Shown here: positions 1 to 64,000 of the stretch, in pieces
How positions within the stretch are numbered: position 1 is the first letter of the stretch
Layout of the letters: every line of letters begins with the position of its first letter
Source of the DNA: Myxococcota bacterium
GTDB lineage: Bacteria > Myxococcota_A > UBA796
Reading direction: 5' to 3'
NCBI GenBank assembly: GCA_047621685.1
Contig: JBLHNG010000002.1
Location: 2,350-66,349, forward strand
DNA length: 64,000 bases
Notes under the pieces: generated by a model
Seen by the model: the letters and a program-made list of their open reading frames with translations, nothing else
Told to the model about the DNA's origin: nothing
Databases searched by the model: none
Translations under genes and position numbers: made by a program

Positions 1-994
1 GACCGAACAGGTCCGCCAGCATCCGGATCTTCGCCGCAGGAACCCCGGATATCTCCTCGACCCGCTCCGGGGTGTACTCGGCGATGGCGGTCTTGTATGC
101 CTCGAAGGTCATCTCCTCGCCCTTCAGCGTGCCGGGATCGGTGTCCTTTCGAAACGAGCAGTGCTTCTCAATAAACTCGGCGTCGTAGCTGCCGTTCTTG
201 ATGAGGAGGTGGGCGATTCCGTTGGCGATGGCGAGGTCGGACTGGGGGGTGAACTCCAGGTACTCCTGGCAGTGGGCGGTGGTGCGGGTGCGGCGGGTGC
301 CGATGTCAATGAGCAGCACCTCCTCGCCCCGGCTGCGGCGGTCGATGACCCGGGAGAACAGCACCGGGTGCATCTCAGCAGGGTTGTTGCCCCACATGAT
401 CAGCACGTCGCAGGCGTCGAGGTCGTCGTAGCAGCCCGCCGGCTCGTCCACCCCATAGGTCGCGACAAACCCGGTGACCGCGCTGGCCATGCACAGCCGG
501 GCGTTGGGGTCGATGTGGTTGTTGGACAGCCCGCCCTTCATGAACTTCTGGGCGGCATAGCCCTCGGGGATGGTCCACTGACCGCTGCCGTAGAATGCGA
601 AGCCAGACGGGTCCAGCTCCACCCGGTCGGCGATGACCGAGATGGCCTCCTCCCAGCTCACCGGGACCAGCTCGCCGTTCTTGCGCAGCAGCGGGGTCCG
701 AAGTCGATCCTCGCCGTACAGCGCGAGGCCGACGTGGTAGCCCTTCACACACAGCAGGCCCTTGTTGACCTCTGCCTGCTGATCACCGGCGATGGCGACC
801 ACACGGCCGCTCTTCACGCCGACCTGGACATGGCAGCCGGTGCCGCAGAACCGGCAGGGGGCTTTGTCCCAGCGCACGCCGTCGCCAGTCCGGCGGGCCT
901 GCTCTTCGCTCTGTCCGCGGGCGACTCCAGAGGCCGCTGCGGTTGCTGCGGCCATCGCGCTCAACTTGAGGAAGGTTCGTCGATCGGTGCTCAT
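1..994 (-). CDS. napA: periplasmic nitrate reductase catalytic subunit NapA (5' part only; gene runs off the window start)
   Basis: My own minus-strand translation from ATG at 994 gives MSTDRRTFLKLSAMAAATAAASGVARG (twin-arginine signal). It continues WDKAPCRFCGTGCHVQVGVKSGRVVAIAGD.., the N-terminal 4Fe-4S Cys motif typical of NapA. The ORF is open-ended, so it is absent from the supplied track. Confidence 0.85.
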   Translation of the reverse strand, partial: MSTDRRTFLKLSAMAAATAAASGVARGQSEEQARRTGDGVRWDKAPCRFCGTGCHVQVGVKSGRVVAIAGDQQAEVNKGLLCVKGYHVGLALYGEDRLRTPLLRKNGELVPVSWEEAISVIADRVELDPSGFAFYGSGQWTIPEGYAAQKFMKGGLSNNHIDPNARLCMASAVTGFVATYGVDEPAGCYDDLDACDVLIMWGNNPAEMHPVLFSRVIDRRSRGEEVLLIDIGTRRTRTTAHCQEYLEFTPQSDLAIANGIAHLLIKNGSYDAEFIEKHCSFRKDTDPGTLKGEEMTFEAYKTAIAEYTPERVEEISGVPAAKIRMLADLFG

Positions 995-9109: not shown

Positions 9110-9115
9110 GGACTC

Positions 9116-9802: not shown

Positions 9803-9822
9803 CTCTTTCCCTCCTTACTGGA

Positions 9823-9846
9823 TTAATAGATGTTTTTATCTGTTAA
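9823..9846 (-). promoter_or_regulatory. 24-bp AT-rich palindrome TTAATAGAT-N6-ATCTGTTAA upstream of norC
   Basis: 9-nt arms with one mismatch. The near edge is 21 nt from the norC ATG, and the Shine-Dalgarno sits at the same offset as at nirK. It matches the element at 12692..12715. Confidence 0.55.
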
Positions 9847-9865
9847 AACGGAACAAGAACGACCA

Positions 9866-10450: not shown

Positions 10451-11175
10451 CGGAACCCCAGGTTTTCTGTGGTGAACGAAGCATCAAGTGAGCTGCGCAT
10501 CGCGAAGCGCATGAACGAGGCGTAGTCCTGGACATCCCGGGCCGACAGGGCACCAGCCCCGCAGAAGCGAAGGTTCTCGCCGTCTCCAGACTCCCGGACA
10601 TCCGCCGAGATCAGCTGGCTGTTGAAGTCCAGCGTCCACTCCCAGATCAGGCCGTGCAGGTCGTGCAGTCCCCAGAAGTTAGCAGTCCCCTCCCCGACCG
10701 GTCGCAGCCGCTCGCCAGGACCAGCGCCGTACCACGCCAGGATCGCGGCGAGAGTCTCAGGATCCTCACGACCACCGTGGGATGTTGTGGCGGTGGCGTC
10801 GGCGACGTACTCCCACTGATAGACCCCCGGCAGATCACCACCAGCGGCCTGGCAGTAAGCCCGCGCGGCGAACCAGCTCACGCCGGTGACCGGGTGGTCG
10901 GGATGCAGCACCCCGAAGTCCGCCGGACCGCGCCAGGACGACAGGTAGCCAGCATCGGCGAAGACCGCTGGAGGTGCCCCCCTCGCCCATGTCGGATTTG
11001 ACCTGACAAACGCCATGAATTCCGCGTTGGTCACCGGTGTGGTGTCCATGGAGAACGCCGCGACCGAGACAACCTCCTGGCCTTCCCCAGGCGGGTAGAA
11101 CGGCGCATGCTGCCCTTGAGCAATGGCGACTCGCTCCGCTGCACCGGAGAGGGCGATCAGGAGGAAAGAGAGCAT
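10432..11175 (-). CDS. nirV: formylglycine-generating-enzyme (SUMF1) family protein, NirV-like
   Basis: 247 aa with an FGE-sulfatase-like sequence (..PVTGVSWFAARAYC.., GLHDLHGLIWEWT, GFRCA). ATGA overlap with the nirK stop. nirV is the usual gene downstream of nirK. Confidence 0.75.
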   Translation of the reverse strand: MLSFLLIALSGAAERVAIAQGQHAPFYPPGEGQEVVSVAAFSMDTTPVTNAEFMAFVRSNPTWARGAPPAVFADAGYLSSWRGPADFGVLHPDHPVTGVSWFAARAYCQAAGGDLPGVYQWEYVADATATTSHGGREDPETLAAILAWYGAGPGERLRPVGEGTANFWGLHDLHGLIWEWTLDFNSQLISADVRESGDGENLRFCGAGALSARDVQDYASFMRFAMRSSLDASFTTENLGFRCAYSL

Positions 11176-12671
11176 CAGTGAGCCGCGCCCGGAGGCCGCT
11201 CAGTCCCAGCGCGCACGGCAGCAACCTGCTCTGCGGTGACGGTGGTGCCGTTGTTGTCCCAGCTTCCGTAGACGAAGGTGAGGATGTTGGCGACCTCGTC
11301 GTCGTTGAGCTGACTCATCGGCGGCATGACCGAGCTGTACGCCTCACCGTTGACCGTCACCGGACCGGTCAGGCCGTTGACCACCACTTCAATGGCGCGG
11401 TCGACGTCGGCGTTGAGGAAGTCCGAGCCAGCCAGCGGCGGGAAGACTCCCTTGAGTCCAGCGCCGTCGGGCTGGTGGCAGGTCGAGCAGGTGCCAGCGA
11501 ACAGGCTCTCACCAGCAGCGATCTGAGCCTCTCGGCTGAGCACACCACCCGCGAGCTGCTCGGCGGCCTGGGCGACGGCCCCGGTGGGCTCGGCCTTGTC
11601 GGCCAGGTAGACGCTGGAGACTTCCTTGCCCGAGTAGATCGCCAGGTCGTCATCGCCCTCGACCTTCATCATGCCCAGCGCGCCCTTGTTGAACGCCCGG
11701 AAGATGCTGTGGTCGACCAGGATGTAGGTCCCCGGTGCCTCGACGTAGTACTCCACGACGGCCGCGCCGCCGGAGGGGATGAGCGTGGTCTGAACGTTCT
11801 CCTGGTAGTTCGAGCCGCCCTCGGTGTAGACCCTGTCGAAGATCTCGCCGATGACATGGAAGCTGCTGACGAGGTTCGGGCCGCCGTTGCCGACGTAGAG
11901 CCGGACCGTCTCACCGACGTTGGCGACCAGGGCATTGTCGCCAACCAGCGATCCCTCAGAGCCGTTGAACAGCACGTAGGTCGCGTTCTCCTCGATGGCC
12001 TTCTGCATGTCGAAGGGTTGAAGTCCCTTCTCGCGGTATTTTCCGACCGTGTAGAAGTCGCCCTGCATGACGTAGTACTCGCGGTCGACCGGGGGCAGCC
12101 CTTCTGGCGGCTCGACGAGGATGAGCCCGTACATGCCGTTGGCGATGTGCATGCCGACCGGCGCGGTGGCGCAGTGGTAGACGAACAGGCCCGGGTTGAG
12201 CGCCTTGAAGGTGAACTGAGACTCATGCCCCGGCGCGGTGAAGCTGCTGGCCGCGCCGCCGCCCGGTCCGGTGACCGCGTGCAGGTCAATGTTGTGGGGC
12301 ATCTTGGAGTCGGGGTGGTTCTGGAGATGGAACTCCACGGTGTCGCCCTGACGAATCCGGATGAACTTCCCGGGCACGTCGCCGCCGAACGTCCAGAAGG
12401 TGTAGTCGACGCCGTCGGAGATCGGCATCACCTTCTCGACGACCTCCAGCTCCACGATCACCTTCGCTGGCTCGGTGCGGCCGGTGGGCGGCGGGACCAC
12501 GGGGGCGCTGGTGATCACTGCGTTTATCGGCTCACCCTGCGGGGGGCCGAAGTCGCCGGCCCTTGAGCCGCCGATCTCAGGGCTCTCAGGGGGCAGAGTG
12601 GTTGTGGGCTGCTGTGAAGGGGTGTCGCACCCGGTCAGAGTCAGCGCGAGGAGGATGGGGAGGGTCATCAT
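11175..12671 (-). CDS. nirK: copper-containing nitrite reductase NirK, lipoprotein form with a C-terminal cytochrome c domain
   Basis: Start taken at ATG 12671 ([15 protein letters not shown] lipobox; AAGGAG upstream). Cu ligands [10 protein letters not shown] and [16 protein letters not shown]. The C-terminal ~100 aa carry CSTCH, a class I cytochrome c. Confidence 0.95.
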
Positions 12672-12691
12672 CGCTGTGCTCCTTGTCGATC

Positions 12692-12715
12692 TTAATAGAT
12701 ATAAAGGTCTATTAA
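12692..12715 (-). promoter_or_regulatory. 24-bp AT-rich palindrome TTAATAGA-N8-TCTATTAA upstream of nirK
   Basis: Perfect 8-nt arms (9-nt with one mismatch). The near edge is 21 nt from the nirK ATG. Same sequence and spacing as 9823..9846. Confidence 0.55.
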
Positions 12716-12763
12716 ACCTATAAGTGATCACCCCCGCCGCGGTCAACCGGTATCCTCACCGCC

Positions 12764-37987: not shown

Positions 37988-39934
37988 TTGCGCATGCAGA
38001 CAAATTCCATCAACATGGGGCCGATGCTTATTCTGATTACACTGCTGGGCTGCTCCAAAGACCTCGACGAGGACGGATACGACGACAATTCCGACTGCGA
38101 TGACAGCAACGCGACCGTCTACCCGGGCGCGCTGGAGTCATGCAACGGCATCGACGACAACTGCGATGGTGCCGGTGACGACGGCGCACACGATGCCCTC
38201 GACTGGTTCGGCGATGCCGACGGGGACGGCTTCGGCGTCTCCTCGGAGTACACCGAGGCCTGCGAAGCACCCGACGGCTACGTCGACAACATCGACGACT
38301 GCGACGACACTGCGGCGACCACCTACCCCGGCGCCGACGAGCTGTGCGATGGGGCGGACAACGACTGCGACGATGAGGTCGATGAGGACGGGGCGGTGGA
38401 CTCCCCGACCTGGTACTTCGACGGCGACTTCGACGGCTTCGCGGCTGGCGACAAGACCCAGGTCACCTGCAACCAGCCCTCCGGCTACCTCGCGGAGAGC
38501 ACCGACTGCGACGACACCAACGACGGGGTCTACCCGGGTGCCACAGAGGTCTGTGGGGACGGCGTGATCAACGACTGCGATGCCAGCGTCACCGACGCAG
38601 TGGATGCCTGCGGGCTCGGCTCGGAGATCGACCTGACCGACGCCCGCGCCGTCTTCGTGGGCGAGGACCGCTACGGCGAGGCTGGCTTCGCGGTCAGCCA
38701 GGCCGGCGACTTCAACGGCGACGGCCTGGGCGATGTCATCATCGGCGCGCCCTACCACGACGAGGCCAGCGAGGACGACGGGCGGGCCTACATCATCTTC
38801 GGCGATGCCAGCGGTGAGGTCGATCTCTCAACCGCCGACGCCACCTTCACCGGCTTCAGCGGCAACGACTTCGCCGGGTACTCGGTCGCGGGTCTGGGGG
38901 ACTGGGACGGCGACGGGCTCGATGATGTCGCCATCGGGGCCAACCAGGCGGGGGTGTATGTGGTGGCCGGCGGCAGCCTCGGCGACCTCGTCCCCTCGGA
39001 GTCCTACGCCCGACTCGCTGGCGGTAACTACGCGGTCGGCGCGGCGGGCGACCTCAACGGCGACGGACTGGCCGACCTCATCGCCGGCAATCCCTACGAC
39101 GACACCAACCTCGAAAACGGCGGCATCGTCTACCTCGTGCTCGGCGGCGTCTCCGGCAACCCCTCCCTCGGCGGAAGCGCCGATGCGAAGCTGTACGGCA
39201 GCGAGGAGAGCGGACTGACTGGCTGGGTGGTCTCGGGAACCGGCGACTTCGACGGCGACGGCTTCGACGACATCATCATCGGCGCCCCCTACGAGGACAG
39301 CCCCGAGGATGGAACCTCAAACGCCGGCTGCGTCTGGATCGTCTCCGGCGATGACCGCGCAAACGCCGACATCGCAGACGTCATGACCGCCCGATACTGC
39401 GGCACGGGGGAGAACGAGTTCCTCGGCTGGTCGGTCTCTGGGGCCGGGGACATCGACGACGATGGTCTCGACGACGCGGTCTTCGGCGCACCGGGCAACA
39501 CCGAAGGCGGCGGGGATGCCGGGGCGGCGTTCATCGCACAGGGCGGCGAGGACGGCGACTTCGGGTCCGAGGATGCCTACGCCATCCTCCTGGGCACCGG
39601 CGGCGAGGCTGGAAGCTCGGTCTCCGAGGGTGGCGACGTCAACGGCGACGGCCGGGCCGACCTGCTCGTCGGTGCGCCCGAAGAAGACGACGGCGGCGCG
39701 AACTCCGGAACCGCCTACCTCATCCTCGGCGGCATCTCCGGAACCTTCGACCTCGCCAATGCCGACACGAAGCTGTACGGCACCCAGAGCAACGAGTACG
39801 CGGGGTGGTCGATCTCGACGGCTGGAGACGTCAACAACGACGGCCTCTCCGACATGCTCGTCGGCGCCTACCTCAACGATGAGGGCGGCGAGGAGGCCGG
39901 TGCGGCCTACGTGGTGCTGGCGGGCGGGTACTGA
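37988..39934 (+). CDS. lipoprotein with MopE-type 'putative metal-binding' Cys/Asp motifs and FG-GAP (integrin-alpha-like) repeats
   Basis: 648 aa with lipobox ITLLGC. Three CDD..x..YPGA.E.C.G.D.DCD units, then about 7 repeats of ..G..V..AGD.NGDG..D..(I/V)GA... Confidence 0.8.
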   Translation: MRMQTNSINMGPMLILITLLGCSKDLDEDGYDDNSDCDDSNATVYPGALESCNGIDDNCDGAGDDGAHDALDWFGDADGDGFGVSSEYTEACEAPDGYVDNIDDCDDTAATTYPGADELCDGADNDCDDEVDEDGAVDSPTWYFDGDFDGFAAGDKTQVTCNQPSGYLAESTDCDDTNDGVYPGATEVCGDGVINDCDASVTDAVDACGLGSEIDLTDARAVFVGEDRYGEAGFAVSQAGDFNGDGLGDVIIGAPYHDEASEDDGRAYIIFGDASGEVDLSTADATFTGFSGNDFAGYSVAGLGDWDGDGLDDVAIGANQAGVYVVAGGSLGDLVPSESYARLAGGNYAVGAAGDLNGDGLADLIAGNPYDDTNLENGGIVYLVLGGVSGNPSLGGSADAKLYGSEESGLTGWVVSGTGDFDGDGFDDIIIGAPYEDSPEDGTSNAGCVWIVSGDDRANADIADVMTARYCGTGENEFLGWSVSGAGDIDDDGLDDAVFGAPGNTEGGGDAGAAFIAQGGEDGDFGSEDAYAILLGTGGEAGSSVSEGGDVNGDGRADLLVGAPEEDDGGANSGTAYLILGGISGTFDLANADTKLYGTQSNEYAGWSISTAGDVNNDGLSDMLVGAYLNDEGGEEAGAAYVVLAGGY

Positions 39935-42217: not shown

Positions 42218-43372
42218 CTATGGGCCGGTGTAGGTGTAGAGCCGGTAGTCATTGGGCTCGCCGACGATGAGCATGTCCTGATCGTCGTTGATCGTGATGC
42301 CCTCCGGCTTGCTCATTGTGACGCTGAAGTCCGTCACGATGCTCCCGGACAGGTCCACATCGAGCACCACCGAGTCCTCATGGCTGAGCACCATCAGCCG
42401 ATCGGTCCGGGCGTCGTATCGGCAGCTTGAGATGTCGCCGATGGTGTCACCGAGGGCCGCGTCGGCGTCGAAGGGCTCGACCACCACGAGTCCGTCGTCG
42501 TAGGAGGCGTCCGCGGAGTCGGTGGGTCGGGAGAAGGTGTAGATGGTCATCGGGTTCTTCTCCACACACACCCAGAACGTCTCGCTCACCGGATCGTATG
42601 CGACCCCCTCCCCGCCGCTGTTGGAGGAGGTGGGCGAGTCGGCGAAGGTGATCACCTGGAAGGTGTCGAGGTCGATGGTGGTCTCGTCCTCGGGCACGAC
42701 GCCGATGTACATCGCGCCATCCTCCGCGACAAAGGCGAACTCATGGTCGCTGCCGTCCGAGCCGAGGTAGACGATGTCCTCCAGGTCGCTGTGGTCGACG
42801 TTCTCCAGGGTGATCTCCCGGAGGTGGGTGAAGTCGGCGTCCAGCTCATCCAGCCGCCGGTTGCCGTCCCGGATGCCCATGTAGGTGCCGGTCATCGGGT
42901 TCCAGGTGACCCCGGAGAGGTTGGCGCCGATCTCTTTGATCTCCCCGAAGATCTTGTCGTCGGTGTAGTGGGCCAGCGGCGAGTCAGGGACATCGCAGTC
43001 GAGGATCAGGGCGGCGTCGGTGTCGTCGCAGTCCGCTCCACCGTGCGCCTCGGCGTCTTCCCCGTCGCCATCAGCATCGTAGTCGCTGCCGCCGTCGCAG
43101 TCGCCGTCCACGCCGTCGTAGTAGACCTCCTCGGCATCGGGGTGGACGGCAGCGTCGGTGTCGTCGCAGTCGTCGCCGCCGTGGACCTCGTCGATGTAGC
43201 CGTCGTCGTCTTCGTCGAGGTCTGGCTCGGCGGTCTCGGTCGGCTCGGCGGTCTCGGTCGGCTCGGCAGTCTCGGTGGAATCGCCGGTGTCGATGGGCGC
43301 CTGGGTGTCGTCTTCGATGGTGCCCGGGGTGCAGGACAGCAGCAGGGCGAACGGGAGGCAGAGCATCTTCAT
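42218..43372 (-). CDS. SdiA-regulated-domain-like beta-propeller lipoprotein with MopE-type motif(s)
   Basis: 384 aa with lipobox LLLSC and a (TAEPTE)3 linker. CDDTDAAVHPDAEE..DGDCDG unit. C-terminal ..LSGVTWNPMTGTY.. propeller-like region. Confidence 0.55.
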   Translation of the reverse strand: MKMLCLPFALLLSCTPGTIEDDTQAPIDTGDSTETAEPTETAEPTETAEPDLDEDDDGYIDEVHGGDDCDDTDAAVHPDAEEVYYDGVDGDCDGGSDYDADGDGEDAEAHGGADCDDTDAALILDCDVPDSPLAHYTDDKIFGEIKEIGANLSGVTWNPMTGTYMGIRDGNRRLDELDADFTHLREITLENVDHSDLEDIVYLGSDGSDHEFAFVAEDGAMYIGVVPEDETTIDLDTFQVITFADSPTSSNSGGEGVAYDPVSETFWVCVEKNPMTIYTFSRPTDSADASYDDGLVVVEPFDADAALGDTIGDISSCRYDARTDRLMVLSHEDSVVLDVDLSGSIVTDFSVTMSKPEGITINDDQDMLIVGEPNDYRLYTYTGP

Positions 43373-43913: not shown

Positions 43914-45503
43914 GTGCTGAATGACGACGTGCTCTTCTCCCGCCTCGCGACCCTGCTCGCCCCGCTCTACACCGACGAGCTGACGGGGCGGCCGGTGCGG
44001 GATCCCCAGCGGGTCGCCCAGGCCGTCGAGCTGATGCGCAGCCTGCCCCGGACCGTCTGGCTCAACCGGCTGCGGACCCTGCCCCTCACCTTCATCAACC
44101 TCTCCGGGCTCGACCTCGCCGGAGTGTGGCTGTCGCGAACCACCCTGAACAGCAGCCGCCTCCTGGGATGCGACCTCACCGGTGCGGACTTCCGTGAGGC
44201 GAACCTCATCTCCGCCGGCCTCTCTGGAGCGGACCTCTCGGGCGCCTGGATGTACAGGGCCAACCTTCTCGATTCGGATCTTCGCGGCGCGAATCTCTCC
44301 GATGCAGACCTCTCGGGTGCCGATCTCCGCGGCGCGAACCTCACCGACGCCACCCTCACCGGGGCACGCTTCACCGGCGCCATCTGCAATGCAAAGACGA
44401 CCTGGCCTGACGAACCCCCACCCGACGCCCACCACCTCGCGCCCAGCCTGTCCGCCCCGGGAGCCGACCTCTCGGAGCAGCATATCAACGGCACTGACCT
44501 GACCGGCGCGGACTTCTCCGGGGCCAACCTTCGCCGCGCGGAGATCCGCAGCTCAACCTTCACCGACGCCGACCTCTCCGGTGCCGACCTCTCCGGGTCT
44601 GACCTCCGGGGCACCCGGCTCGACGGTGCCAACCTCCATGGGGCCCGGTTCGACGGCGCCCTGGTCAACGAAGAGACCATCTGGACGGGCACTCCGCCAG
44701 CCGGGATCCTCCGACTCGCGCCCGGAATGGTCGCGGAGGGCGCGGACTTCAGCAACTACATCCTGTACGGAGTCGACCTCACCGACGCGAGGCTGTCCGG
44801 CACCCGGATGCGGGGCACCAACCTGGACCGCTCCATCCTGGAGGGCGCTGATCTGCGGCAGGCCGACCTGAGACAGGCCAACATCGGCGATGCCCGGCTG
44901 CGGGGGGCGGACCTGTCTGGCGCGGACCTCACCGGGGCGCAGCTGAAGCGATTCGGATCGGGCTGGATGAACACCCGCGACATCTCCCTTCGGCTCGCTC
45001 GGCTCCCTGGCGCAGTGCTCCAGCGCCGCGATCTGTCTGGTTCCGACCTCACCGGGGCCGATCTCCGCGGCGTCTCCTTTGAGCGCTCCATTCTCCAGGG
45101 CGTCTCGCTGCGAGAGGCCGACCTCACCGACGCCAACCTCTCCCTTGCCGACCTGAGGGGCTGCGACCTCACCGGCGCGAAGCTCGCCCCCGGCCAGCTC
45201 GCCTGGGCCATTCGGGATGACACCACCCTCTCGGATCACCCCCTCCCGCCGCCCGAGATCCGCTCTGGTGCCAGCCTCTCCGGGATCCACCTCTCGCGAT
45301 GTTGGATGAAGAACCTCGACCTCTCCAACACCAACCTCACCGACGCCGACCTGCGGGGGTCCAACCTCTCCGGTGCGGATCTCACCGGTGCCATCCTCTC
45401 TGATACCCGCTTCAACCGCGCCCGCTACAGCACCACCACCCGCTGGCCCGACGGCTTCGACCCAACCGATCCCACCCACGGTCTCCGACTCCGCGATGGC
45501 TGA
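43914..45503 (+). CDS. large pentapeptide-repeat protein
   Basis: 529 aa (GTG start). Long runs of A(D/N)L.. pentapeptides ([53 protein letters not shown] ..) arranged in several blocks. Confidence 0.9.
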   Translation: [529 protein letters not shown]

Positions 45504-48846: not shown

Positions 48847-48900
48847 GGCTCCGGCTTTCACCCCGACCCAGGCTATGGGTCTAAAGAGAAAGCCGGAGCC
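48847..48900 (+). promoter_or_regulatory. 13-bp perfect long-range inverted repeat (ggctccggctttc .. gaaagccggagcc) around the start region of the CotH-like gene
   Basis: Arms at 48847-48859 and 48888-48900 with a 28-nt loop. The 3' arm contains the GGAG that lies 6 nt upstream of ATG 48905. The alternative ATG 48875 lies in the loop. Confidence 0.4.
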
Positions 48901-48904
48901 TGCC

Positions 48905-50584
48905 ATGTCCCCCATCGCCCTCGTCCTGACACTGACAGCCTGCCGCCCGACGGAGACCCCAGGCATCGACGAAGGCGACGACACGCTCGACGAGGACACG
49001 CTCGGCGGGGATCCGCTCTACGACCTCTCCCACCTCCTCACCGTCGACCTCACTCTGCCCGAAGCAGACTGGGACACCCTGCGCAGACAGACCCGATCCA
49101 TCGAGGACGTCATCTTCGCAGAGGACTGCCAGGCCGAGCCGTTCGACAGCCCGTTCACCTGGTTTGAGGCCAGCGTCAGCCTCGACGGGCAGACCTTTGA
49201 GCGCATCGAGGTGCGCAAGAAGGGCTTCATCGGCTCGCTCAATGAGGACAAGCCGAGCCTCAAGCTCGATCTGGGCGAGTTTGACGACGAAGCCACCTTC
49301 ATGGACGCGCGGCGGCTGACCCTCAACAACGCCGTCTCCGACCCGGCCCTCATCCGACAGTGCCTCGCCTACGCCGCCTTCGCAGACGCTGGCATCCCCG
49401 CCAGCCAGTGCAGCCTCGCCCGGGTCTCGGTCAACGGCGATGACCTCGGCATCTTCGTCAACATCGAGCCGATCAAGAAGCCGATGCTGGAGGGCCACTT
49501 CGCCAGCGTGGAGGGCAACCTCTACGAGGGCACCCTGTCGGACTTCCGGGCGGGCTGGACGGGCACGCTGGAGAAGAAGACCAACGAGACTGAGGACGAC
49601 TGGAGCGACATCGACGCGCTGGTGGAGGCTGCTGAAGCCGACGATGACGACCTGATCGCAGCGCTGTCTGAGGTGATCGACCTCGATGACTTCTTTCGGT
49701 TCTGGGCCATGGAGGTCCTCACCCAGCACGGCGACGGCTACGCGGGCAACACCAACAACTTCTACCTCTACGCCGACCCCGCTGATGGCCTGCTGCGCTT
49801 CATCCCCTGGGGCGTGGACATGACCCTCGGCGTCTGGGAGGAGACGCCCCCGAGCGTCTACGCCTCGGGAATCCTCGCCTGGAGGCTCTATGGGCTACCC
49901 GAAGGCCGAGAGCGGTACGCCGACGCCATGGAGCAGGTGCTCGCGGACGCCTGGGACCCCGACCTCATGGCCGCTCGAATCGACACCATGACCGCGCTCA
50001 TCGAGCCGGAGGTGAGCGCGTCGGAGTGGAGCCGGATCAGTGGGGAGATCAGCGACGTGCGCGACCGGGTGGAAGACCGGGCCGGCGAGCTGGAGGCGGT
50101 GCTGTCTGAGGGGCTCACAGACTGGAACGGGGAGCCTCGGGACAGCTTCTGCATTGCCCCGTTCGGGTCGGTCGAGGTGGCGTTCGAGACCACCTGGGGA
50201 ACCCTGACCACCGCGGATCCGTTCACGACGGGCACCTCCGAGATCGACCTGGACTTCGACGACGGCACGGTGCTCGACCTCGACAACGGCAGCGCGATCA
50301 TCGGCACCGCAGAGGGCGAGACGGTGATGTACCTGCCCGCCTGGATCTCCCCCACCCAGGCGATCCTCCTCTACGCCAGCGTGCCCGAATCCGACATCAC
50401 CCCCGGCACCCTGACCCTCGACCTCAGCGAGCGCATCGGTGCGCTGATGTACCTCGACACCGACACGATGGAAGACTTCGAATTCGTCAGCTACATCACC
50501 GGAGATCTCACCTTCACCGAGGCCGACACCACCAGCTCGGCCCCGGTCTCAGGAACCCTGAGCGGTCAGTTCCTCGCGCTCTGA
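48905..50584 (+). CDS. CotH-family (spore-coat-protein-H-like kinase) lipoprotein
   Basis: MSPIALVLTLTAC lipobox (ATG 48875 is an alternative start). ..KKGFIGSLNEDKPSLKLDL.., LTLNNAVSDP, ..NLYEGTLSDF.., NNFYLYADP...L.FIPWG.D fit CotH. Confidence 0.75.
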   Translation: MSPIALVLTLTACRPTETPGIDEGDDTLDEDTLGGDPLYDLSHLLTVDLTLPEADWDTLRRQTRSIEDVIFAEDCQAEPFDSPFTWFEASVSLDGQTFERIEVRKKGFIGSLNEDKPSLKLDLGEFDDEATFMDARRLTLNNAVSDPALIRQCLAYAAFADAGIPASQCSLARVSVNGDDLGIFVNIEPIKKPMLEGHFASVEGNLYEGTLSDFRAGWTGTLEKKTNETEDDWSDIDALVEAAEADDDDLIAALSEVIDLDDFFRFWAMEVLTQHGDGYAGNTNNFYLYADPADGLLRFIPWGVDMTLGVWEETPPSVYASGILAWRLYGLPEGRERYADAMEQVLADAWDPDLMAARIDTMTALIEPEVSASEWSRISGEISDVRDRVEDRAGELEAVLSEGLTDWNGEPRDSFCIAPFGSVEVAFETTWGTLTTADPFTTGTSEIDLDFDDGTVLDLDNGSAIIGTAEGETVMYLPAWISPTQAILLYASVPESDITPGTLTLDLSERIGALMYLDTDTMEDFEFVSYITGDLTFTEADTTSSAPVSGTLSGQFLAL

Positions 50585-51641: not shown

Positions 51642-52121
51642 TCACTGCGCTGGTCTGGACACAAATCCAATGCGCGCATGAATTCTCGCAGCCGACGGCT
51701 TCACGATCAGTGTGGTCCCTTCCGGGGGAGCCTGTCGCCCGACACACTGCGCTCCGCCGCAGAGAAACGGGGCCAGATGCGATGCGATGGGTCCCCGCTT
51801 GCTCATCCTCACCCCGCAGACCGTGCAGCGCCACCAGCCGATCCCGAGCTGCTTCCACTGCACAGACGGGCTCGGATGCCAGTCTGCTGGCGTGTCAACG
51901 ATCTCATTGAAGTCGCGCTCTCGGCCATCGGGGGCCACGACGCAGTCGATGTAGTCGAAGTCCCAGGCATCGAGGAAGATCACGACCTCCCAGCCGTCAC
52001 CCAGCCGGTAGTGGACATTACCGGCCGCCGCCTGAGGCTCGACGTTGGCGAGCAGCCGGACCTCTCCAGTCTCAATGCGGCCCCAGAGCCTCAGAAGCTC
52101 GGCGTCCGTGATGGCGCTCAC
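51642..52121 (-). CDS. hypothetical protein with a C-terminal Cys-rich segment
   Basis: 159 aa. The GTG start overlaps the radical SAM stop (GTGA). ..WWRCTVCGVRM..FLCGGAQC.. is possibly a zinc ribbon. Confidence 0.45.
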   Translation of the reverse strand: MSAITDAELLRLWGRIETGEVRLLANVEPQAAAGNVHYRLGDGWEVVIFLDAWDFDYIDCVVAPDGRERDFNEIVDTPADWHPSPSVQWKQLGIGWWRCTVCGVRMSKRGPIASHLAPFLCGGAQCVGRQAPPEGTTLIVKPSAARIHARIGFVSRPAQ

Positions 52122-54001
52122 TGCGCGGCTTCTCGGGTGACCACCCGGTCGAGCAGCCGGTCTGTTAGCGCGAGGATGGTCGGGCTGTGAGACTGCCCGG
52201 GAAGCACCACGTTGAAGTTCGCGGTCCTCCGATAGCAGGGACGAGCGTCGTCTCTGGGGGTGAGGAGGAGCAGCAGCAGCTCTCGCCCTGCCCCGTCGAG
52301 GATCTGCACCTCGCCGCGCTGCGGGGTGACTGAGACCAGCAGCCGGTCCGAACGCTGGCGGCCCAGTGAGAACAGGCGGACCAGCAACGCCTCGGGGAAG
52401 ATCGGCGGATCTGGGGGCAGCGGCTCGGGCGGCGGAGGCGGGAGCGGGGGCTCGGGCGACGACTCGCTCGGCTCAGGAGGCGGCGGGAGGATGTTGTGGG
52501 CGGTCCATCGGGCCAGGAAGTCGTGGCGGTCCGGGGGGAGCATCCAGCCCGCCAGGATCTCGACGGGGACGGGGCAGTCCACCCGCAGGACCCCGCCAAA
52601 GTGCTCGACGATGCCCATCATCCGCCGACACCGCAGCTCCGGATCGCCCGCCGCATCGCTGCCGCGCCACAGCACACCGTAGGACGGCCCCTCCAGGTCC
52701 CCCATCGCCGCACGGCCCTGGGCGTTGTCGGTGGTGAACAGCGGCGAGACGTTGGCGTTGGGGGACAGCCCGTCGAGCCCGGCAATGCGCTCCAGCATCG
52801 AGACCGTCTGGTGGTACTCCGCCTCGGTCTCGTCCGGCCAGCCGACGATCACCCCGAAGCCGACGTGGACCCGCCCCCCGCTGGCCCGATCGGCGCGCTG
52901 AAGGGCCGACCAGACCTGTGCGGACGTGCCGGGCTTCTTCATCACCTTGCGGATTCGGTCGCAGCCGGACTCCAGGCCGAAGAACAGCTGGGTGATGCCC
53001 GCCTCTGCAGCCCGCTCGACCACCGCCTCGGTGACCCGGGGGTCGACCACCCAGTTGGCGGAGCACTGCGCCTGTGTGCCTGCGGTGATCAGGGTCGTGC
53101 AGAGGTCCGTGAATTGGCTGGGCCAGCCGTTGATGGTCGCATCGCACAGCTCGACGGTGATGTCGGGGCGGTCGGGGTAGGCCTGCCGCCAGCCGTGGGC
53201 GATGCGGCGGATCTCCTCGGCACAGGTCTCCACGCTGCCCCAGCCGGTCTCGGGATAGACGAGCTGGTTGGTGCAGAACGCGCACCGAAAGACACAGCCG
53301 ACGTTGAGGACCGTCGGCAATCGGGGCTGGGTGTCGGGTGCGACGAGGGGCAGCAGGGCGGCGTAGTCGATGGGGCTGGTGGGCGGGGTGCTCTTCGCCA
53401 GCGGGCCGCCATCGTCGAGATGCTCCGGTGCGATCCAGGTGTGTGCCAGCCGACGCCCCCGGCCCGGGTGACCATCCAGCATCGCCGTCGCCAGCGGCAC
53501 GATCACATCATCGCCCGATCCACTGACCACCGCGTCTGCCCAGGGTCCGTGCAGGATCGCCTTTCGCTCGATCGCCTCTGGACCACCGAGGATGATCCGG
53601 ACCTCAGGGCGGCGCTGCCGGATCATCTGGCAGACCTGAAGGGTGAGGTCGACGTTGGTCCGCCAGATCGAGAGCGCCACCACACCCTCTCCCCCCGACA
53701 GCAGGCGATCGAGGATCTCCGCAAACAGCGCCGGGTGCTGCGCTGCTGCCTCTGCGAGCCGGGCCATGCGGGTGGCGAGGGGGACATCCAGCGCCAGGGT
53801 CGCCAGGGATGAGAGCCGGATGTCCTCGGGGACCGCGTTCAGGTCGGCTAGCGGACGAATCAGGCGGGTGGGGACGCCGTTGTCGTTGAGGATGTGCGCC
53901 AGTCGGACCACACCGGCACCGAGCCAGGTGTAGTGGAAGAAGGGCGGGAGGGTGGCGAGGACGACGGAGGACACAGGATCAGGGTAGCGCGGTGCGGTCA
54001 C
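52118..54001 (-). CDS. B12-binding-domain radical SAM protein with a Pro-rich linker and an extra C-terminal domain
   Basis: 627 aa. N-terminal Rossmann-like B12-type region (..VVALSIWRTNVDL..VRIILGGPEA..). CVFRCAFC is a CxxxCxxC radical SAM cluster motif. PPPPEPSESSPEPPLPPPPPEPLPPDPP linker, then about 110 further aa. Confidence 0.8.
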   Translation of the reverse strand: MTAPRYPDPVSSVVLATLPPFFHYTWLGAGVVRLAHILNDNGVPTRLIRPLADLNAVPEDIRLSSLATLALDVPLATRMARLAEAAAQHPALFAEILDRLLSGGEGVVALSIWRTNVDLTLQVCQMIRQRRPEVRIILGGPEAIERKAILHGPWADAVVSGSGDDVIVPLATAMLDGHPGRGRRLAHTWIAPEHLDDGGPLAKSTPPTSPIDYAALLPLVAPDTQPRLPTVLNVGCVFRCAFCTNQLVYPETGWGSVETCAEEIRRIAHGWRQAYPDRPDITVELCDATINGWPSQFTDLCTTLITAGTQAQCSANWVVDPRVTEAVVERAAEAGITQLFFGLESGCDRIRKVMKKPGTSAQVWSALQRADRASGGRVHVGFGVIVGWPDETEAEYHQTVSMLERIAGLDGLSPNANVSPLFTTDNAQGRAAMGDLEGPSYGVLWRGSDAAGDPELRCRRMMGIVEHFGGVLRVDCPVPVEILAGWMLPPDRHDFLARWTAHNILPPPPEPSESSPEPPLPPPPPEPLPPDPPIFPEALLVRLFSLGRQRSDRLLVSVTPQRGEVQILDGAGRELLLLLLTPRDDARPCYRRTANFNVVLPGQSHSPTILALTDRLLDRVVTREAAQ

Positions 54002-58959: not shown

Positions 58960-61860
58960 ATGTCCAGATCAGGACCTTCCATCCTCCTCGCTCTCCTCAT
59001 CGGCTGTCGAGCCTCCGATAAGATCGATGAGGAGGAGATCGACACCGGGAGCGTCTCCGAGACGCCCGATGCCGATGCCGACGGATATGACGCCGACGAA
59101 GACTGCGACGACGCGAATTCTGTGGTCAACCCCGGTGCCTCTGAGATCTGCGACGGGATCGACAACAATTGCGACGGCATCGTCGATGATGGCGTCACAA
59201 CGACCTTCTACTCAGACACCGACGGCGACGGCTTCGGGGACTCCGAGGCCACCACCGAGGCCTGCGAGCAGCCGTCAGGGTACGTGCCCATCGGCAACGA
59301 CTGCGACGACAGCAACGGCGAGGTCTACCCCTCCGCCCCCGAGCGATGCGACGGCCTCGACAACGACTGCAATGGCGACATCGACGAGGGCCTCACCGAG
59401 CACTGGTACGCAGACGGCGACGGAGATGGCTTCGGGGACTCCACGAGTGGCATCGAGTCCTGTGACCCAAAGCAGGGCTATGTCGCGGATGACACCGACT
59501 GCGACGACACCGATCCCACTGCGTACCCCGGCGGCGAGGAGGTCTGCGATGAGGCGGACAACGACTGCGACGGCGACACTGATGAGGGTGTCACCACGAC
59601 GTACTACGAGGACATCGACGCCGACGGCTACGGGGTCTCTGACACCACCACCGAGTCCTGCGACCTCCCCACAGGCTACGCAGAGGTCGCAGGCGACTGC
59701 GATGACGCCGTGGCGGCGGTAAACCCCGGCGCTGCGGAGGTCTGCGATGAAATCGACAACGACTGCGACGGCGAGATCGACACCGACGCGGAGGACTTCG
59801 CCACCTTCTACGCCGACACTGACGGCGACGGCTTCGGCGATGCAGGCGACACCACCGACGCCTGCGAGGCACCCAGCGGCACCGTCACCGATGACACCGA
59901 CTGCGACGACGGTGACTCGGCGATCAACCCGGACGCCGCGGAGGTCTGCGACGGCGCGGACAACGACTGCGACGGCGACATCGACGACGACGATGCCAGC
60001 CTCGACACCAGCACCACCGACACCTTCTACACCGACGATGACGGAGACGGCTTCGGAGACGCAGGCGCCCCGGTGCTCACCTGCGAGGCGCCCTCTGGCA
60101 CCGTCACCGACGACACAGACTGCGACGACACCGACGCCTCCATCAACCCCGACGCCGACGAGATCTGCAGCGGGGTCGACGACGACTGCGATGGGGTCAC
60201 CGATGACCTCGGTCCTGCCGACATCTCCGCAGGCTCCCTGAGCGGCGAGGCGCGCTATCAGTACAGCCCGGTGGCTGCCGGGGCGGGCTACCTGGAGGCG
60301 AGCTGGTCTGCGGAGCCGGTGGCGGACAGCTACGAGCTGGCGGTGGGCAGCAGCGCCGGGGACGACGATGTGGAGGGCTGGACCGACGTCGGTCTGGTCA
60401 CCAGCGCCACCCTGAGCGGGCTGACCCTGGAGGGGGCCTGGGACGACGCGGAGTACTACGTCTCCGTCCGCGCGGTCAACGGCACGACCGCTTGCGACCT
60501 CAGCGCGACCTCTGAGGCGGTGCAGATTGCAGAGGCGGAGACCTGGACGGGCGACGTGGCCGATCTGCGAGACTCCGACGACCGGGGCGGCTACACCGAG
60601 GACTGGCCGGAGAGCGGGGTGGACGCGGTCTACGGCGAGCACTGGTTCGAGAGCGTCTCAATCGACGCAGACACCGTGGTGATGGTGCAGGGCTGGGGGC
60701 TGGTCGATGGGGTGACCTCGGGCATCTCCAGCACAGATGCCGCAGTGACGGATCCAGGGGACGGCTGGCTCTCGCTGTTCACCAATGACCTCCTCCTCGC
60801 AGGCACGATCACCGCCTCAGGGCGGGGCTACGGCGGCGGCGCGGGCGGCGGGGCCGGAGTGCTCGGCGGCTACCAGGGCTACGGCGGCGACGGCGGGCTG
60901 GGCGGCGACGGCGGAGCGACCTCCAGCTACTCCGGTGGCGGCGGCGGCGGCTCGCCGGGTGGGGCGGGCGGCGTCGGCGTGACCACTGGCGGCGACGGCA
61001 ACCTCTTCGGCGGCGGCAGCGGCGGCACCGGGTGCAGCGGCTCAAGCGGACGCGACGGCGGAGACGGCAGCAGCGGAAACGCCGGCGGCACCGGCAGCAC
61101 GGCGTCCTCGGGCACTCCGGGCAGCGGCGGCGTCGGTGAGTTCGCTGCGGGCGGCGGCGACGGGGTGAGCGGCTGCGACAACTGGACGGGCGGCGGCGGC
61201 GGCGGCTACGGCGGCGGCGGCAGCGGCGGCGCACAGTGGGGGAGCGCCACGCTGGAGGCCTCTGGCGGCGGCGCAGGCGGATCGGGCGGCAGCGGCGGCT
61301 CGCTGAGCGTGCACGGTGCGGACGCCGCCGGAGCCTACGCTGGCAGCGGGGGCACCAGCTCCGGCGGCTACACCGGCACCGTGGGCAGCAACGGCGGCTA
61401 CCTCTCCACCGCAGGCAACGGCGACACCAGCACCGATCGCGGCCTGGCGCTTGGCGGGGGCGGCGGCGGCGGCAGCGGCGGCTACCAGGAGACCGGCGGA
61501 GCTGGCGGCGGCGCGGGCGGCGGGGCGATCACCCTGTATGCCTGGGAGAGCCTGACCATCGAGAGCACCGCGGCGCTGCTTGCCAACGGCGCAGGCGGCG
61601 GCGGCGGCGCCCAAGACAACGGCGGCAACTCCACCAGCGCGGCAGGCGGGGTGGGGGCCGGCGGCGGCATCCTGCTGGAGGCCCGGGATCTCACCATCGA
61701 CACCGACCACCCCTACATCAGCGCCACGGGCGGAGACGGGCAGACCAGCAACGGCGGCACCATCAAGCTGTTCTACGACAGCCTCTCCGGTGCCGCCCCC
61801 TCCAGCAGCGCCGCCGGTCGGATCTACGACGCTGGCAGCGGGAGCTGGCAGGAGCCCTGA
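58960..61860 (+). CDS. giant lipoprotein with six MopE-type Cys/Asp metal-binding motifs, a central domain and a glycine-dominated C-terminal region
   Basis: 966 aa with lipobox LLIGC. Six CDD.....NPGA.E.CDG.DNDCDG units alternating with DGDG(F/Y)G. The C-terminal part is made of GGxGG runs ending in a short non-Gly cap. Confidence 0.8.
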   Translation: MSRSGPSILLALLIGCRASDKIDEEEIDTGSVSETPDADADGYDADEDCDDANSVVNPGASEICDGIDNNCDGIVDDGVTTTFYSDTDGDGFGDSEATTEACEQPSGYVPIGNDCDDSNGEVYPSAPERCDGLDNDCNGDIDEGLTEHWYADGDGDGFGDSTSGIESCDPKQGYVADDTDCDDTDPTAYPGGEEVCDEADNDCDGDTDEGVTTTYYEDIDADGYGVSDTTTESCDLPTGYAEVAGDCDDAVAAVNPGAAEVCDEIDNDCDGEIDTDAEDFATFYADTDGDGFGDAGDTTDACEAPSGTVTDDTDCDDGDSAINPDAAEVCDGADNDCDGDIDDDDASLDTSTTDTFYTDDDGDGFGDAGAPVLTCEAPSGTVTDDTDCDDTDASINPDADEICSGVDDDCDGVTDDLGPADISAGSLSGEARYQYSPVAAGAGYLEASWSAEPVADSYELAVGSSAGDDDVEGWTDVGLVTSATLSGLTLEGAWDDAEYYVSVRAVNGTTACDLSATSEAVQIAEAETWTGDVADLRDSDDRGGYTEDWPESGVDAVYGEHWFESVSIDADTVVMVQGWGLVDGVTSGISSTDAAVTDPGDGWLSLFTNDLLLAGTITASGRGYGGGAGGGAGVLGGYQGYGGDGGLGGDGGATSSYSGGGGGGSPGGAGGVGVTTGGDGNLFGGGSGGTGCSGSSGRDGGDGSSGNAGGTGSTASSGTPGSGGVGEFAAGGGDGVSGCDNWTGGGGGGYGGGGSGGAQWGSATLEASGGGAGGSGGSGGSLSVHGADAAGAYAGSGGTSSGGYTGTVGSNGGYLSTAGNGDTSTDRGLALGGGGGGGSGGYQETGGAGGGAGGGAITLYAWESLTIESTAALLANGAGGGGGAQDNGGNSTSAAGGVGAGGGILLEARDLTIDTDHPYISATGGDGQTSNGGTIKLFYDSLSGAAPSSSAAGRIYDAGSGSWQEP

Positions 61861-61864
61861 GCCC

Positions 61865-62560
61865 TCACCGCCCGTTCACCGAGAAGTGCTGGTAGTCCTT
61901 CAGACTCGACCAATTCCCACCCCACTTCCACCCCACCGCCACAAACGCCACCACCACCGGCCCGTCTACCGCGATCATCCCCGGTCGCACGTCACCCCGG
62001 TCGAGGAACGCCGCTCCGGCAGGCGGCAGCACCTTCTTCCCGCGCACATACGGGTTCTCGATCGTGTTGATGTCGATGGCGTGGCCGTAGCTGTGCTGGG
62101 AGAAGCCCCCGCCGCCGGTGACTGCGCGGCAGTTGAACGCCGAGGTGTTGTCGTCGGCCATCGAGGCGTCGTCGGAGCCGCCGTAGTGGTAGGTCGGCTT
62201 CATCCGCCGGATCGCAAACTGAGCCTCGAACAGCGCGGCGAACACCCCGACCAGCGCCTCGGCGTGCTCTCCTGCCACGATCAGCTCCCCGGTGGTCGCA
62301 TTGCCGTCGAAGTCCCAGTGCGACAGGCGCAGCAGCCGCAGCTCGTCGAGGCCCACCGGGCAGCCCTCCCGCCAGGTCACTCCGGTCATCGCAGCGCGCA
62401 TGTCCTCAGGGATCGGCTCGATGGTTCCAGAGAACACCGGCTCAGGCGGCTCCGGAGGCTTCGGTGCTGCGACCGGCTCGGGGATGGGTGTGGGCTCAAC
62501 AACCGGCGGTGGCTCCGGCAGCTCGGGTGCCGACTTCACACAGGCAAGCAACGACATCAT
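61865..62560 (-). CDS. M15-family D-Ala-D-Ala carboxypeptidase/VanY-like metallopeptidase lipoprotein
   Basis: ATG 62560 (MMSLLAC lipobox) with a Pro-rich linker. SQHSYGHAIDIN and DYQHFS are Zn-ligand motifs. Confidence 0.8.
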   Translation of the reverse strand: MMSLLACVKSAPELPEPPPVVEPTPIPEPVAAPKPPEPPEPVFSGTIEPIPEDMRAAMTGVTWREGCPVGLDELRLLRLSHWDFDGNATTGELIVAGEHAEALVGVFAALFEAQFAIRRMKPTYHYGGSDDASMADDNTSAFNCRAVTGGGGFSQHSYGHAIDINTIENPYVRGKKVLPPAGAAFLDRGDVRPGMIAVDGPVVVAFVAVGWKWGGNWSSLKDYQHFSVNGR

Positions 62561-62686
62561 CCACACAGCCCCTCCAGATCGCACCCGGAGGCTACCATCT
62601 GGGTGGTTCGGTGAACTTCAGGTAAAGCCTCTGGAGGATCCAGATGGCGCCCTGTAGGCTGATCATGAACAATTGGGGAGGGAAGG

Positions 62687-63505
62687 ATGAGAAACCTGAG
62701 CCTGACCGGGCTGGTGATCTGCCTGACTATGGGCTGTGATCCGAAGATCGAAGACGGCGAGAATGACACCCGTCCGGATCTCGACACCACAGACACCACC
62801 GGCGAAGACACCACCGACACGGTCGATGACCCCGACGATGACCCCGACGACGACAGCGACGGCGACGGCCTGACCAACGCCGAGGAGGAGGCCTTCGGCA
62901 CCGACCCGAGCAACGCAGACTCCGACGGCGATGGCTACGACGACGGCGAGGAGGTCAACACCCACAACACCAACCCGGCCTACGCCTACAGCCACCCCTA
63001 CACCGGCGACTACAACGTCGGCTGGTGTGAGACCCCGCCCGCCCCCACCGGTCCCAGCGGCTCCGGGCAGTACGGCGCGTCCTACCAGGCCGGCGACGTC
63101 GCCGAGAACTTCACCCTCACCGACCAGCACGGTGAGCAGGTCGACCTCTACTCGTTCTGTGGTCAGTACATCATGATCGCGTTCGGTGCGTTCTGGTGAA
63201 GCTCGTGCCAGTCTCTCGCCCGTGAGGCGCAGAGCAACATGGACCGGTACGGTCCGCGCGGCTTCCAGGCCATCGACATCCTCATCGAGAACAACAACAG
63301 CAACGCCCCGACTCAGGGCGATCTCGCACAGTGGGCAAACAACGCCGGAATGCTGACCGTTCCCGTCCTCAATGACGGCAACTACACCAACTGGGCGCAG
63401 TACGAGCAGGACTTCTACATCCCCACCACCATCCACATCGGCCCGGACATGACCGTGCTTTCAGTGGATCAGGGGATCACGGATCCTGGTCAGTTCGTCC
63501 CCTGA
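62687..63505 (+). CDS. thioredoxin-fold (TlpA/redoxin-like) lipoprotein with in-frame TGA at the redox motif; candidate selenoprotein (UxxC)
   Basis: ORFs 62687..63199 and 63239..63505 are in the same frame. The junction reads ..IMIAFGAFW-TGA-SSCQSL.., so the TGA replaces the first Cys of WCxxC. The downstream part completes a redoxin fold. A hairpin follows 13 nt after the TGA. Confidence 0.6.
63213..63234 (+). promoter_or_regulatory. SECIS-like stem-loop downstream of the in-frame TGA
   Basis: ctctcgcc / ggcg(c)agag is an 8-bp stem with one bulged C and a 5-nt loop cgtga. The loop lies 24-28 nt from the U of the UGA. Confidence 0.4.
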
Positions 63506-63524
63506 TCCGAGTCACTTCGCTGCA

Positions 63525-64000
63525 TTACTTCGCAGCAACATCTCCAGGCAGCTCCAGGGTGACCTGTCCGGAGGAGTCAAACGACAGCACGTCCATTGGG
63601 CAGACCGCGATGCAGATGCCGCAGTGGATGCACGAGGTGTTGGTGTTGTCGAACGGGATCTGGTTCTTGGCGAAGTACATGACGTCCACGCCGACCTGAC
63701 AGTACCGACTGCACTCCGTACAGGTGATGCACTTGTCGTTGCTGACGATCTTGAGCTTTCCGAACCACGCGGAGAGCAGCTTCATGTAGTTGGCCAGCGG
63801 GCACCAGTACCGACACCAGATCTTGCCGCCGAAGAACGGGTAGAAGCCGATGGGCAGCACCGCGACCAGCCAGAAGTCGACGACATAGGCGTAGGACTCC
63901 CACACCGCGTTGTCGCCGTGGGTCTTGAAGAACAGCACGATCGCCAACGCACTTCCCACTGCCCAGACCAGCACGATGGTCGCCTGGAATTCCCACAGCC
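63525..64000 (-). CDS. membrane-bound 4Fe-4S-binding protein (NapH/MauN/YccM-like), 3' part only; gene runs off the window end
   Basis: TM helices, then ..GKIWCRYWCPLA.., CITCTECSRYC and CIHCGICIAVCP ferredoxin motifs. The frame stays open to position 64000. Confidence 0.7.
   Translation of the reverse strand, partial: LWEFQATIVLVWAVGSALAIVLFFKTHGDNAVWESYAYVVDFWLVAVLPIGFYPFFGGKIWCRYWCPLANYMKLLSAWFGKLKIVSNDKCITCTECSRYCQVGVDVMYFAKNQIPFDNTNTSCIHCGICIAVCPMDVLSFDSSGQVTLELPGDVAAK

Follow-up and report, generated by a model that had tools for sequence, protein, structure and literature searches.

A candidate selenocysteine codon at the redox site of a TlpA-like lipoprotein gene from an uncultured Myxococcota bacterium

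Near the right end of the 64,000-nt stretch of Myxococcota DNA analysed here (contig JBLHNG010000002.1; hereafter the window), two open reading frames (ORFs) lie on the plus strand, 62687..63199 and 63239..63505, and the first is closed by a TGA at 63197-63199. The locus raises the question whether this TGA ends a protein or specifies selenocysteine (Sec) at the redox site of a thioredoxin-fold lipoprotein. A reading made from the nucleotide sequence alone (the sequence-only reading) had proposed the latter, with a downstream hairpin serving as the Sec insertion sequence (SECIS), and this central claim was supported by the usual comparative criteria. We put the probability at about 0.88 that TGA 63197-63199 is read as selenocysteine and that 62687-63505 is one gene for a 272-residue selenoprotein. 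The Sec reading follows from the pairing of TGA with Cys codons among homologues, from the finding that the stop at this position is always TGA, from the conservation of coding downstream of it, and from a hairpin that accompanies TGA forms only.

The ORF 62687..63199 encodes 170 aa with the C-terminal end GQYIMIAFGAFW, and its product is deposited as 'hypothetical protein ACI8RZ_000149 [Myxococcota bacterium]'; the public annotation shows two ORFs, of 170 aa and 88 aa. Translation confirmed that both lie in the same frame, the 88-aa ORF starting at an ATG at 63239, which is 552 nt (184 codons) from the first start. After the TGA the frame continues unchanged as SSCQSLAREAQ... for 101 codons to a stop TGA at 63503-63505, so that the read-through product comprises 272 codons with the junction W-[TGA]-S-S-C-QSLAREAQ, matching the FGAFW-U-SSC-QSLAREAQ proposed earlier. 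Translation, a Pfam match across the TGA and the keeping of the read-through frame in homologues support 62687..63505 (+) as the extent of the complete selenoprotein gene, in which the UGA is codon 171 and TGA 63503-63505 the true stop. A purine-rich, Shine-Dalgarno-like stretch, GGGGAGGGAAGG (62675..62686, +; read from the sequence), adjoins ATG 62687. Upstream of ATG 63239 no Shine-Dalgarno was found, in line with the earlier remark that the downstream ORF has no ribosome-binding site of its own, and no sigma-70-like promoter was found in 62300-63800.

A homology search over ~5.8 billion proteins returned relatives of two kinds. Those of the first kind are full-length proteins of 212-278 residues (with a few shorter, apparently partial ones), 41-61% identical; the full-length sequences that were inspected have W-C-x-x-C at the position of the TGA, with the exception of P0022, in which the motif is missing. 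The second kind comprises 11 clusters, one of them the window's own product, all of which terminate at ...GAFW or ...GAMW. Contig DNA obtained for 8 of these 11 shortened clusters (the window's included) revealed a TGA stop followed in frame by x-x-C and 101-110 conserved redoxin residues. A family-alignment scan of GTDB, in which each species was represented by a single genome, added a further 41 loci. All fetched DNA together gave 55 distinct junction sequences, with TGA in 35, TGC in 13 and TGT in 7, and with TAA or TAG in none.

The sequence-only reading had assigned the TGA to the first Cys position in the W-C-x-x-C motif of thioredoxin folds and had left it to an alignment with homologues whether Cys or Sec occupies the site. 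The TGA column is indeed that first Cys in the 20 distinct Cys-type DNA sequences; 20 Cys codons thus stand beside 35 TGA codons, and none of the TGA forms that are readable to their end truly stops there, ~100-110 conserved in-frame residues following with no frameshift and no extra stop. Since it aligns with the first Cys of WCxxC and is TGA in 35/35 stop-type junctions, UGA codon 171 (63197..63199, +) is assigned as the putative Sec that opens a U-S-S-C active site. The resolving residue of this U-x-x-C would be Cys174 (TGC, 63206..63208, +), which corresponds to the invariant column C66 of alignment A2, x-x-C following the TGA in 35/35 Sec forms. The Sec-form motif is [AT]-[FM]-W-U-[PSG]-[SGAY]-C, whereas Cys forms mostly read W-C-G-P-C. 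When the window was compared with its relatives downstream of the TGA, differences were most frequent at third codon positions. In a rough neighbour-joining tree the Sec forms are spread over several deep clades. The window clade has a Cys clade as its sister group, an arrangement that implies one or more Sec/Cys switches.

The hairpin at 63213..63234 (+), an 8-bp stem-loop with a G-containing 5-nt loop that begins 13 nt past the TGA, was recovered as earlier described in minimum free energy folds of longer contexts, and its register is fixed family-wide. It consists of a lower stem 63213-63216/63231-63234, a bulged C63230 and an apical stem 63217-63220/63226-63229, which closes the loop CGUGA (63221-63225) containing G63222 and U63223. 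With the U of UGA numbered +1, G is present at +26 in 35/35 Sec forms as against 2/20 Cys forms (Fisher p = 1.3e-12, uncorrected for phylogeny; the compared sequences are phylogenetically related, and such p-values overstate their independence). U at +27 is found in 32/35 Sec forms and 1/20 Cys forms, and full pairing of the 4-bp apical stem in 28/35 and 1/20, respectively. The hairpin conservation that the sequence-only reading had called for was therefore found: the loop G is in all 35 TGA forms and the hairpin belongs to TGA forms only.

In Sec forms a 5-nt loop is closed by a 4-bp G-C stem (+21..24/+30..33), with a 7-bp stem and a 3-nt loop in a freshwater clade and a 5-bp stem and a 6-nt loop in the L007/L010 clade; the loop nucleotides are almost fixed despite these clade differences in stem register. 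When all 210 registers open to a 4-bp stem were ranked, (+21, loop 5) came first for the Sec set, with full pairing in 57% of the sequences, and the next-best centred on the same loop, whereas the best register for the Cys set lay elsewhere, at +11. In Sec forms positions +25..27 make up a codon for Arg, Gly or Ser (CGU, GGU or AGU), and the keeping of G-U at +26/+27 while the encoded amino acid varies points to selection on the RNA. The Ala codons that flank the loop are fixed as GCC in Sec forms and vary freely in Cys forms, and the outer apical pair, G21-C33 in most clades, is C21-G33 in the window clade, a compensatory change. To judge by these comparisons, the hairpin is a SECIS-type element and not a by-product of the protein sequence.

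As a reference we used the Escherichia coli fdhF SECIS, whose sequence was confirmed within fdhF in 5419 E. coli genomes and which folded with a loop GGUC at +22..25 (G23, U24) and a z-score of -0.9. Both elements are hairpins that lie in the coding region immediately 3' of the UGA; each has a short apical stem rich in G-C above a bulge, and a small apical loop that carries G-U at a fixed distance from the UGA. They differ in the position of the G-U (+26/+27 here, one codon further downstream than the +23/+24 of fdhF), in loop size (5 nt here, or 3 and 6 nt in the two clades just named, and 4 nt in fdhF) and in the bulge, which is a 3' C in the window clade, a 5' A in the others and a 5' U in fdhF. 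The element holds ~20 informative bits and is too short for a significant covariance search of 64 kb. An unconstrained best-hairpin search gave inconsistent stems and was replaced by the fixed-register comparison of Sec and Cys forms. The lower-stem pairing CUGC/GCAG, of a Cys codon with a Gln codon, was dropped as SECIS evidence because it is also present in Cys forms.

Besides the relatedness of the compared sequences, several results weigh against the Sec reading. ARAGORN found no tRNA, tRNA-Sec included, within the 64 kb of the window, nor in any of 38 related loci; SelB- and SelD-type signature motifs were absent from all six frames of the window and all loci; and Pfam scans of 50 window ORFs detected no SelA, SelB or SelD (nor CcdA or DsbD). 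The window hairpin reached a z-score of only -0.5 to -2.0 by segment folded, which is not exceptional alone, and one 46-nt window segment folded into a competing stem, with G26/U27 still in the loop. Rfam gave no match for the whole window at gathering thresholds. Substrate, electron donor and catalytic direction of the enzyme, moreover, are suggested by analogy to ResA, TlpA and Etrx only. The modest z-scores are no argument against function, since the fdhF SECIS itself has only -0.9. A permissive E-value Rfam scan of 63150-63300 returned a single chance match (mir-569, E 9.3) and no SECIS family.

The lack of Sec-machinery genes in the 64-kb window also speaks for the best-surviving alternative, in which the UGA is read through independently of any SECIS, by near-cognate tRNA (Trp or Cys) suppression or after loss of the Sec machinery, and residue 171 is a standard amino acid. 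UGA is the leakiest stop codon, which counts for this alternative as well. However, a G+26/U+27 hairpin that is confined to TGA forms and constrained at the RNA level would be left unexplained without SelB. In addition, the TGA has been kept at the catalytic site in 35 distinct sequences across deep clades, and a genome often carries two copies in tandem; neither would be expected were the enzyme made by inefficient suppression alone. We give SECIS-independent read-through little credence.

Genuine termination, whether in a pseudogene or in a gene split into a 170-residue and a separate 88-residue fragment, is less probable still. It agrees with the public annotation of 170 aa plus 88 aa and with the ATG at 63239, but the 13 codons between the TGA and this ATG, which include the invariant resolving Cys, are conserved in frame, and the ATG has no Shine-Dalgarno before it. 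The downstream ORF called in other homologues has a much later start (51-60 aa), yet the conserved frame begins directly after the TGA, and in those TGA forms that are readable to their end the downstream frame has neither stop nor frameshift. A thioredoxin fold cut within its CxxC would, furthermore, not function.

The chance that a sequencing or assembly error conceals a true TGC or TGT, which the sequence-only reading had named as a possible outcome of resequencing at 63197-63199, is very slight. One base change would restore Cys, and the source is a Myxococcota metagenome-assembled genome (MAG). Yet run SRR28961194, in its independent Logan assembly, shows 100% identity over 2809 nt, TGA included; TGA recurs in 34 further distinct sequences, which stem from numerous samples and assemblers; and the SECIS-like hairpin co-occurs with it. 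An alternative code that gives UGA a sense meaning (Trp in table 4, Gly in table 25), for which only the in-frame TGA itself speaks, can be dismissed, since no ordinary stop is more frequent in the window than TGA, which ends 36/59 ORFs of high third-position GC content, and 63197-63199 is the only in-frame TGA there with coding signal on both sides and no new start.

Read with Sec at codon 171, the protein is predicted to be a lipoprotein that combines calcium-binding-type TSP3 repeats with a ResA/TlpA-like domain bearing a U-S-S-C site. Two N-terminal features named in the sequence-only reading were both found. The first is a putative lipoprotein signal peptide (62687..62737, +), recognised from the sequence by its hydrophobic N-terminus, with the lipobox L-T-M-G-C and its Cys17 at 62735-62737; a Cys after [GA] behind a hydrophobic N-terminus recurs in Sec- and Cys-type homologues, and C17 is nearly invariant in the alignments. 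The second is an acidic linker at about residues 56-99 (62852..62983, +), made up of two bacterial TSP3 repeats (thrombospondin type 3-like, DxDxDGxxDxxE) that Pfam PF18884 TSP3_bac matched in two stretches (E 1.5e-12), the end of the second repeat being an estimate from sequence. A conserved N-terminal extension (..YSHPYTGDYNVGWC..PTGPSG..; 62984..63091, +) follows, whose columns Y105, G107, Y109, V111 and C114 are invariant in alignment A3. The equivalent segment has a predicted local distance difference test (pLDDT) score >95 in the AlphaFold model of the Cys homologue P0001.

The remainder is the ResA/TlpA-like thioredoxin-fold (redoxin) domain, residues 136-257 (63092..63457, +), delimited by Pfam, by sequence matches in the PDB and by Foldseek on the homologue model. 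With the TGA translated as Cys, the read-through protein matched Pfam AhpC-TSA over residues 136-257 (E 7.4e-13; 49 bits vs threshold 26) and Redoxin (E 1.8e-4). The former match spans residue 171 and hence covers both sides of the TGA. Pro246 of Y-I-P-T (63422..63424, +), at the position of the thioredoxin-fold cis-Pro loop, is invariant (column P138 of A2, P246 of A3). Two extra Cys are invariant family-wide, C114 (NVGxC) and C158 (LYSFC), and might form a structural disulfide pair.

The structure was predicted for the Cys homologue P0001, which is 61% identical to the window protein. Its AlphaFold model (mean pLDDT 88.8) places W139-C140-P-P-C143 between a strand at 130-137 and a helix at 141-160, and Foldseek ranked ResA, DsbE/CcmG and TlpA-like structures first (target-normalised template-modelling score 0.75-0.80). 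Sequence matches in the PDB were to the pneumococcal surface lipoprotein thioredoxin Etrx2 (5.6e-8), the DipZ C-terminal domain and ResA. With ResA, TlpA, CcmG (DsbE) and Etrx the window protein shares the fold, a W-C-x-x-C-type site at the start of helix alpha-1 and the conserved Pro loop, and it is predicted to be anchored, as they are, to a membrane outside the cytoplasm; Etrx1/2 are lipoproteins as well. It departs from them by the putative Sec in place of the nucleophilic Cys, by the extra N-terminal extension, the invariant C114 and C158 and the TSP3 linker, and by its x-x residues, which are S/G/P then S/G/A in Sec forms and mostly G-P in Cys-type relatives.

Closer assignments were rejected. 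A ResA orthologue was ruled out by the NCBIfam score (NF002854, 35 bits vs cutoff 170), the protein being ResA-like in fold only. A peroxiredoxin of the AhpC/TSA or Prx/BCP type was ruled out by the W-U-x-x-C site and the lack of a PxxxT/SxxC(U) motif, and NCBIfam BCP stayed below its cutoff (20.7 bits vs 140). No selenoprotein-specific NCBIfam model matched.

With the UGA taken as Sec, we infer the following course. The hairpin 63213-63234, with G63222 and U63223 of its apical loop 26-27 nt from the U of the UGA, would recruit SelB together with guanosine triphosphate and Sec-tRNA(Sec), and UGA171 would be decoded with no termination. As the signal peptide and lipobox suggest, the product would be exported, lipidated on Cys17 and anchored to the membrane facing the periplasm, where the acidic TSP3 linker would tether the TlpA-like domain with its site W-U171-S-S-C174 at the start of helix alpha-1. 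The selenolate of U171 would then attack a substrate disulfide or sulfenate, a selenenylsulfide with Cys174 would resolve the intermediate, and a membrane electron donor of the CcdA/DsbD type would re-reduce the enzyme. By analogy with its structural relatives the protein is most likely an extracytoplasmic thiol-disulfide oxidoreductase, acting as reductase or isomerase. Neither ccdA/dsbD nor cytochrome c maturation or msr genes were found beside the family gene in the window or the examined loci.

UxxC selenoproteins form established predicted families and have already been listed as 'Thiol-disulfide isomerase-like' (cd02966, Sargasso Sea), 'Prx-like thiol:disulfide oxidoreductase' (PF00578) and 'Redoxin family' (PF08534) (PMC13188914 Table 1; PMC1088965), and these families come largely from marine metagenomes and Deltaproteobacteria-type organisms (PMC13188914, PMC1088965). 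Anaeromyxobacter, of the same phylum, has 11 selenoproteins (PMC1794560); our literature search for selenoproteins in Myxococcota found no paper. Compared by description, the window protein, with its putative Sec, shares with the published UxxC families Sec for the first Cys of a thioredoxin-like CxxC, the existence of Cys-type homologues, a SECIS-type hairpin with a loop G after the UGA, and a distant AhpC/TSA similarity in which UxxC stands in place of the TxxU of peroxiredoxins. The searched review texts on UxxC families mention neither the lipobox nor the TSP3 linker, the YSHPY..NVGWC extension or the frequent tandem Sec paralogues, and the words 'periplasm' and 'signal peptide' do not occur in the review text searched.

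Judged by sequence comparison, this is a real selenoprotein gene of the known UxxC TlpA-like or Prx-like type. A bolder claim, which we advance tentatively and consider doubtful, is that it represents a large family not yet described as selenoproteins: exported lipoproteins that join a TSP3 linker to a TlpA-like domain, from aerobic marine and freshwater Myxococcota-like bacteria, in which Sec would be ancestral or repeatedly retained and tandem duplication frequent, whose Sec-type members found here are truncated in databases, and which might serve as a dedicated extracytoplasmic disulfide reductase or isomerase for nearby Cys-rich MopE/FG-GAP surface proteins. Current understanding of Sec biology is unchanged by the finding, and a specialist would not be surprised by it. 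Its value lies elsewhere. The gene and at least 34 relatives are filed as a truncated 'hypothetical protein' plus an orphan ORF (of 88 residues here), and the Sec reading would restore a complete redox enzyme and put these records right. It would also indicate that an uncultured Myxococcota lineage uses selenium, and does so outside the cytoplasm. The closely related Sec and Cys forms, finally, provide a comparison set for SECIS constraint on codon choice and for the Sec-specific x-x change.

A search for further selenoprotein genes in the window and all flanks found only paralogues of the same family. At several loci Sec-type paralogues form tandem pairs spaced by ~1 kb, in which every copy carries a TGA and hairpin of its own (L007 9611/10616; L023 2248/3202; L025 2256/3214; L029 2262/3214; L030 2239/3214; L056 3124/3915); the window has one copy. 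Two further paralogues (L028 4024 and L032 3124) and protein P0022 keep LYSFC and the fold and have lost the redox motif, which is replaced by A-W-D-S-N-C, G-E-T-G-S-S-A-F and G-E-T-G-D-P-D-Y, respectively; they are probably non-catalytic derivatives. The family contigs L023-L025, L028, L030, L038, L040, L047 and L050 carry MAG titles of 'uncultured Enterobacterales' or 'Klebsiella pneumoniae', labels that are probably wrong, since gene content and relatives look Myxococcota- or Deltaproteobacteria-like.

Directly downstream of the candidate selenoprotein gene, a NapH/MauN-like membrane ferredoxin is encoded in convergent orientation (63525-63974, -; 54 bits against TIGR02163, which is below cutoff), the stop codons of the two genes being separated by 19 nt; its N-terminus lies beyond the window end, and the counterpart in L057 has at least 343 aa. 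The suggestion of the sequence-only reading that this 4Fe-4S membrane protein could be a redox partner gained no support from synteny, as it is not conserved beside orthologues. The downstream gene in orthologous loci encodes a cyclic nucleotide monophosphate (cNMP)-binding/EAL protein (L001, L004-L006), a TerB-like protein (L012/L014) or some other product, and the NapH/MauN-like neighbour was rejected as a partner. In the P0032 lineage a gene of the 2-thiouracil desulfurase family (PF04463/DUF523) lies directly upstream in divergent orientation (L004 9260-9883, L005 337-960, L006 6825-7448), a neighbour that the window lacks.

Close to several family members lie genes for large secreted proteins that are rich in Cys and contain Cu-binding_MopE and FG-GAP repeats, at 58960-61860, 37988-39934 and 42218-43372 in the window and at L001 6827-11548, L005 7031-11593, and L007 1-6940 and 11117-14143. 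The 966-aa MopE/FG-GAP protein of the window has a long Gly-rich C-terminal half. These proteins may be substrates of the enzyme, or just an abundant gene class in these genomes. Other genes of the window, with no evident link to the selenoprotein, encode a B12-binding radical SAM protein (52118-54001, -), a CotH-kinase-domain protein (48875-50584, +) and a 529-aa pentapeptide-repeat protein (43914-45503, +).

The opposite end of the window (1-12746, mostly minus strand) is occupied by a respiratory, denitrification-like cluster by Pfam. It comprises genes for an NrfD-type membrane subunit (1275-2525), a 4Fe-4S Fer4_11 subunit (2535-3716), an Rrf2 regulator (4222-5139), a 606-aa ORF (5121-6941), a CbbQ/NorQ AAA protein (6941-7744), a COX1-family protein (7745-9109), a dihaem-type cytochrome c (9116-9802), SCO1/SenC (9866-10450), an FGE-sulfatase-domain protein (10432-11175) and a multicopper oxidase fused to cytochrome c (11175-12746), all assigned by Pfam except the 606-aa ORF. 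The COX1-family haem-copper oxidase protein and the multicopper oxidase suggest a respiratory lifestyle, and the layout of the cluster looks like nirK plus norCBQD.

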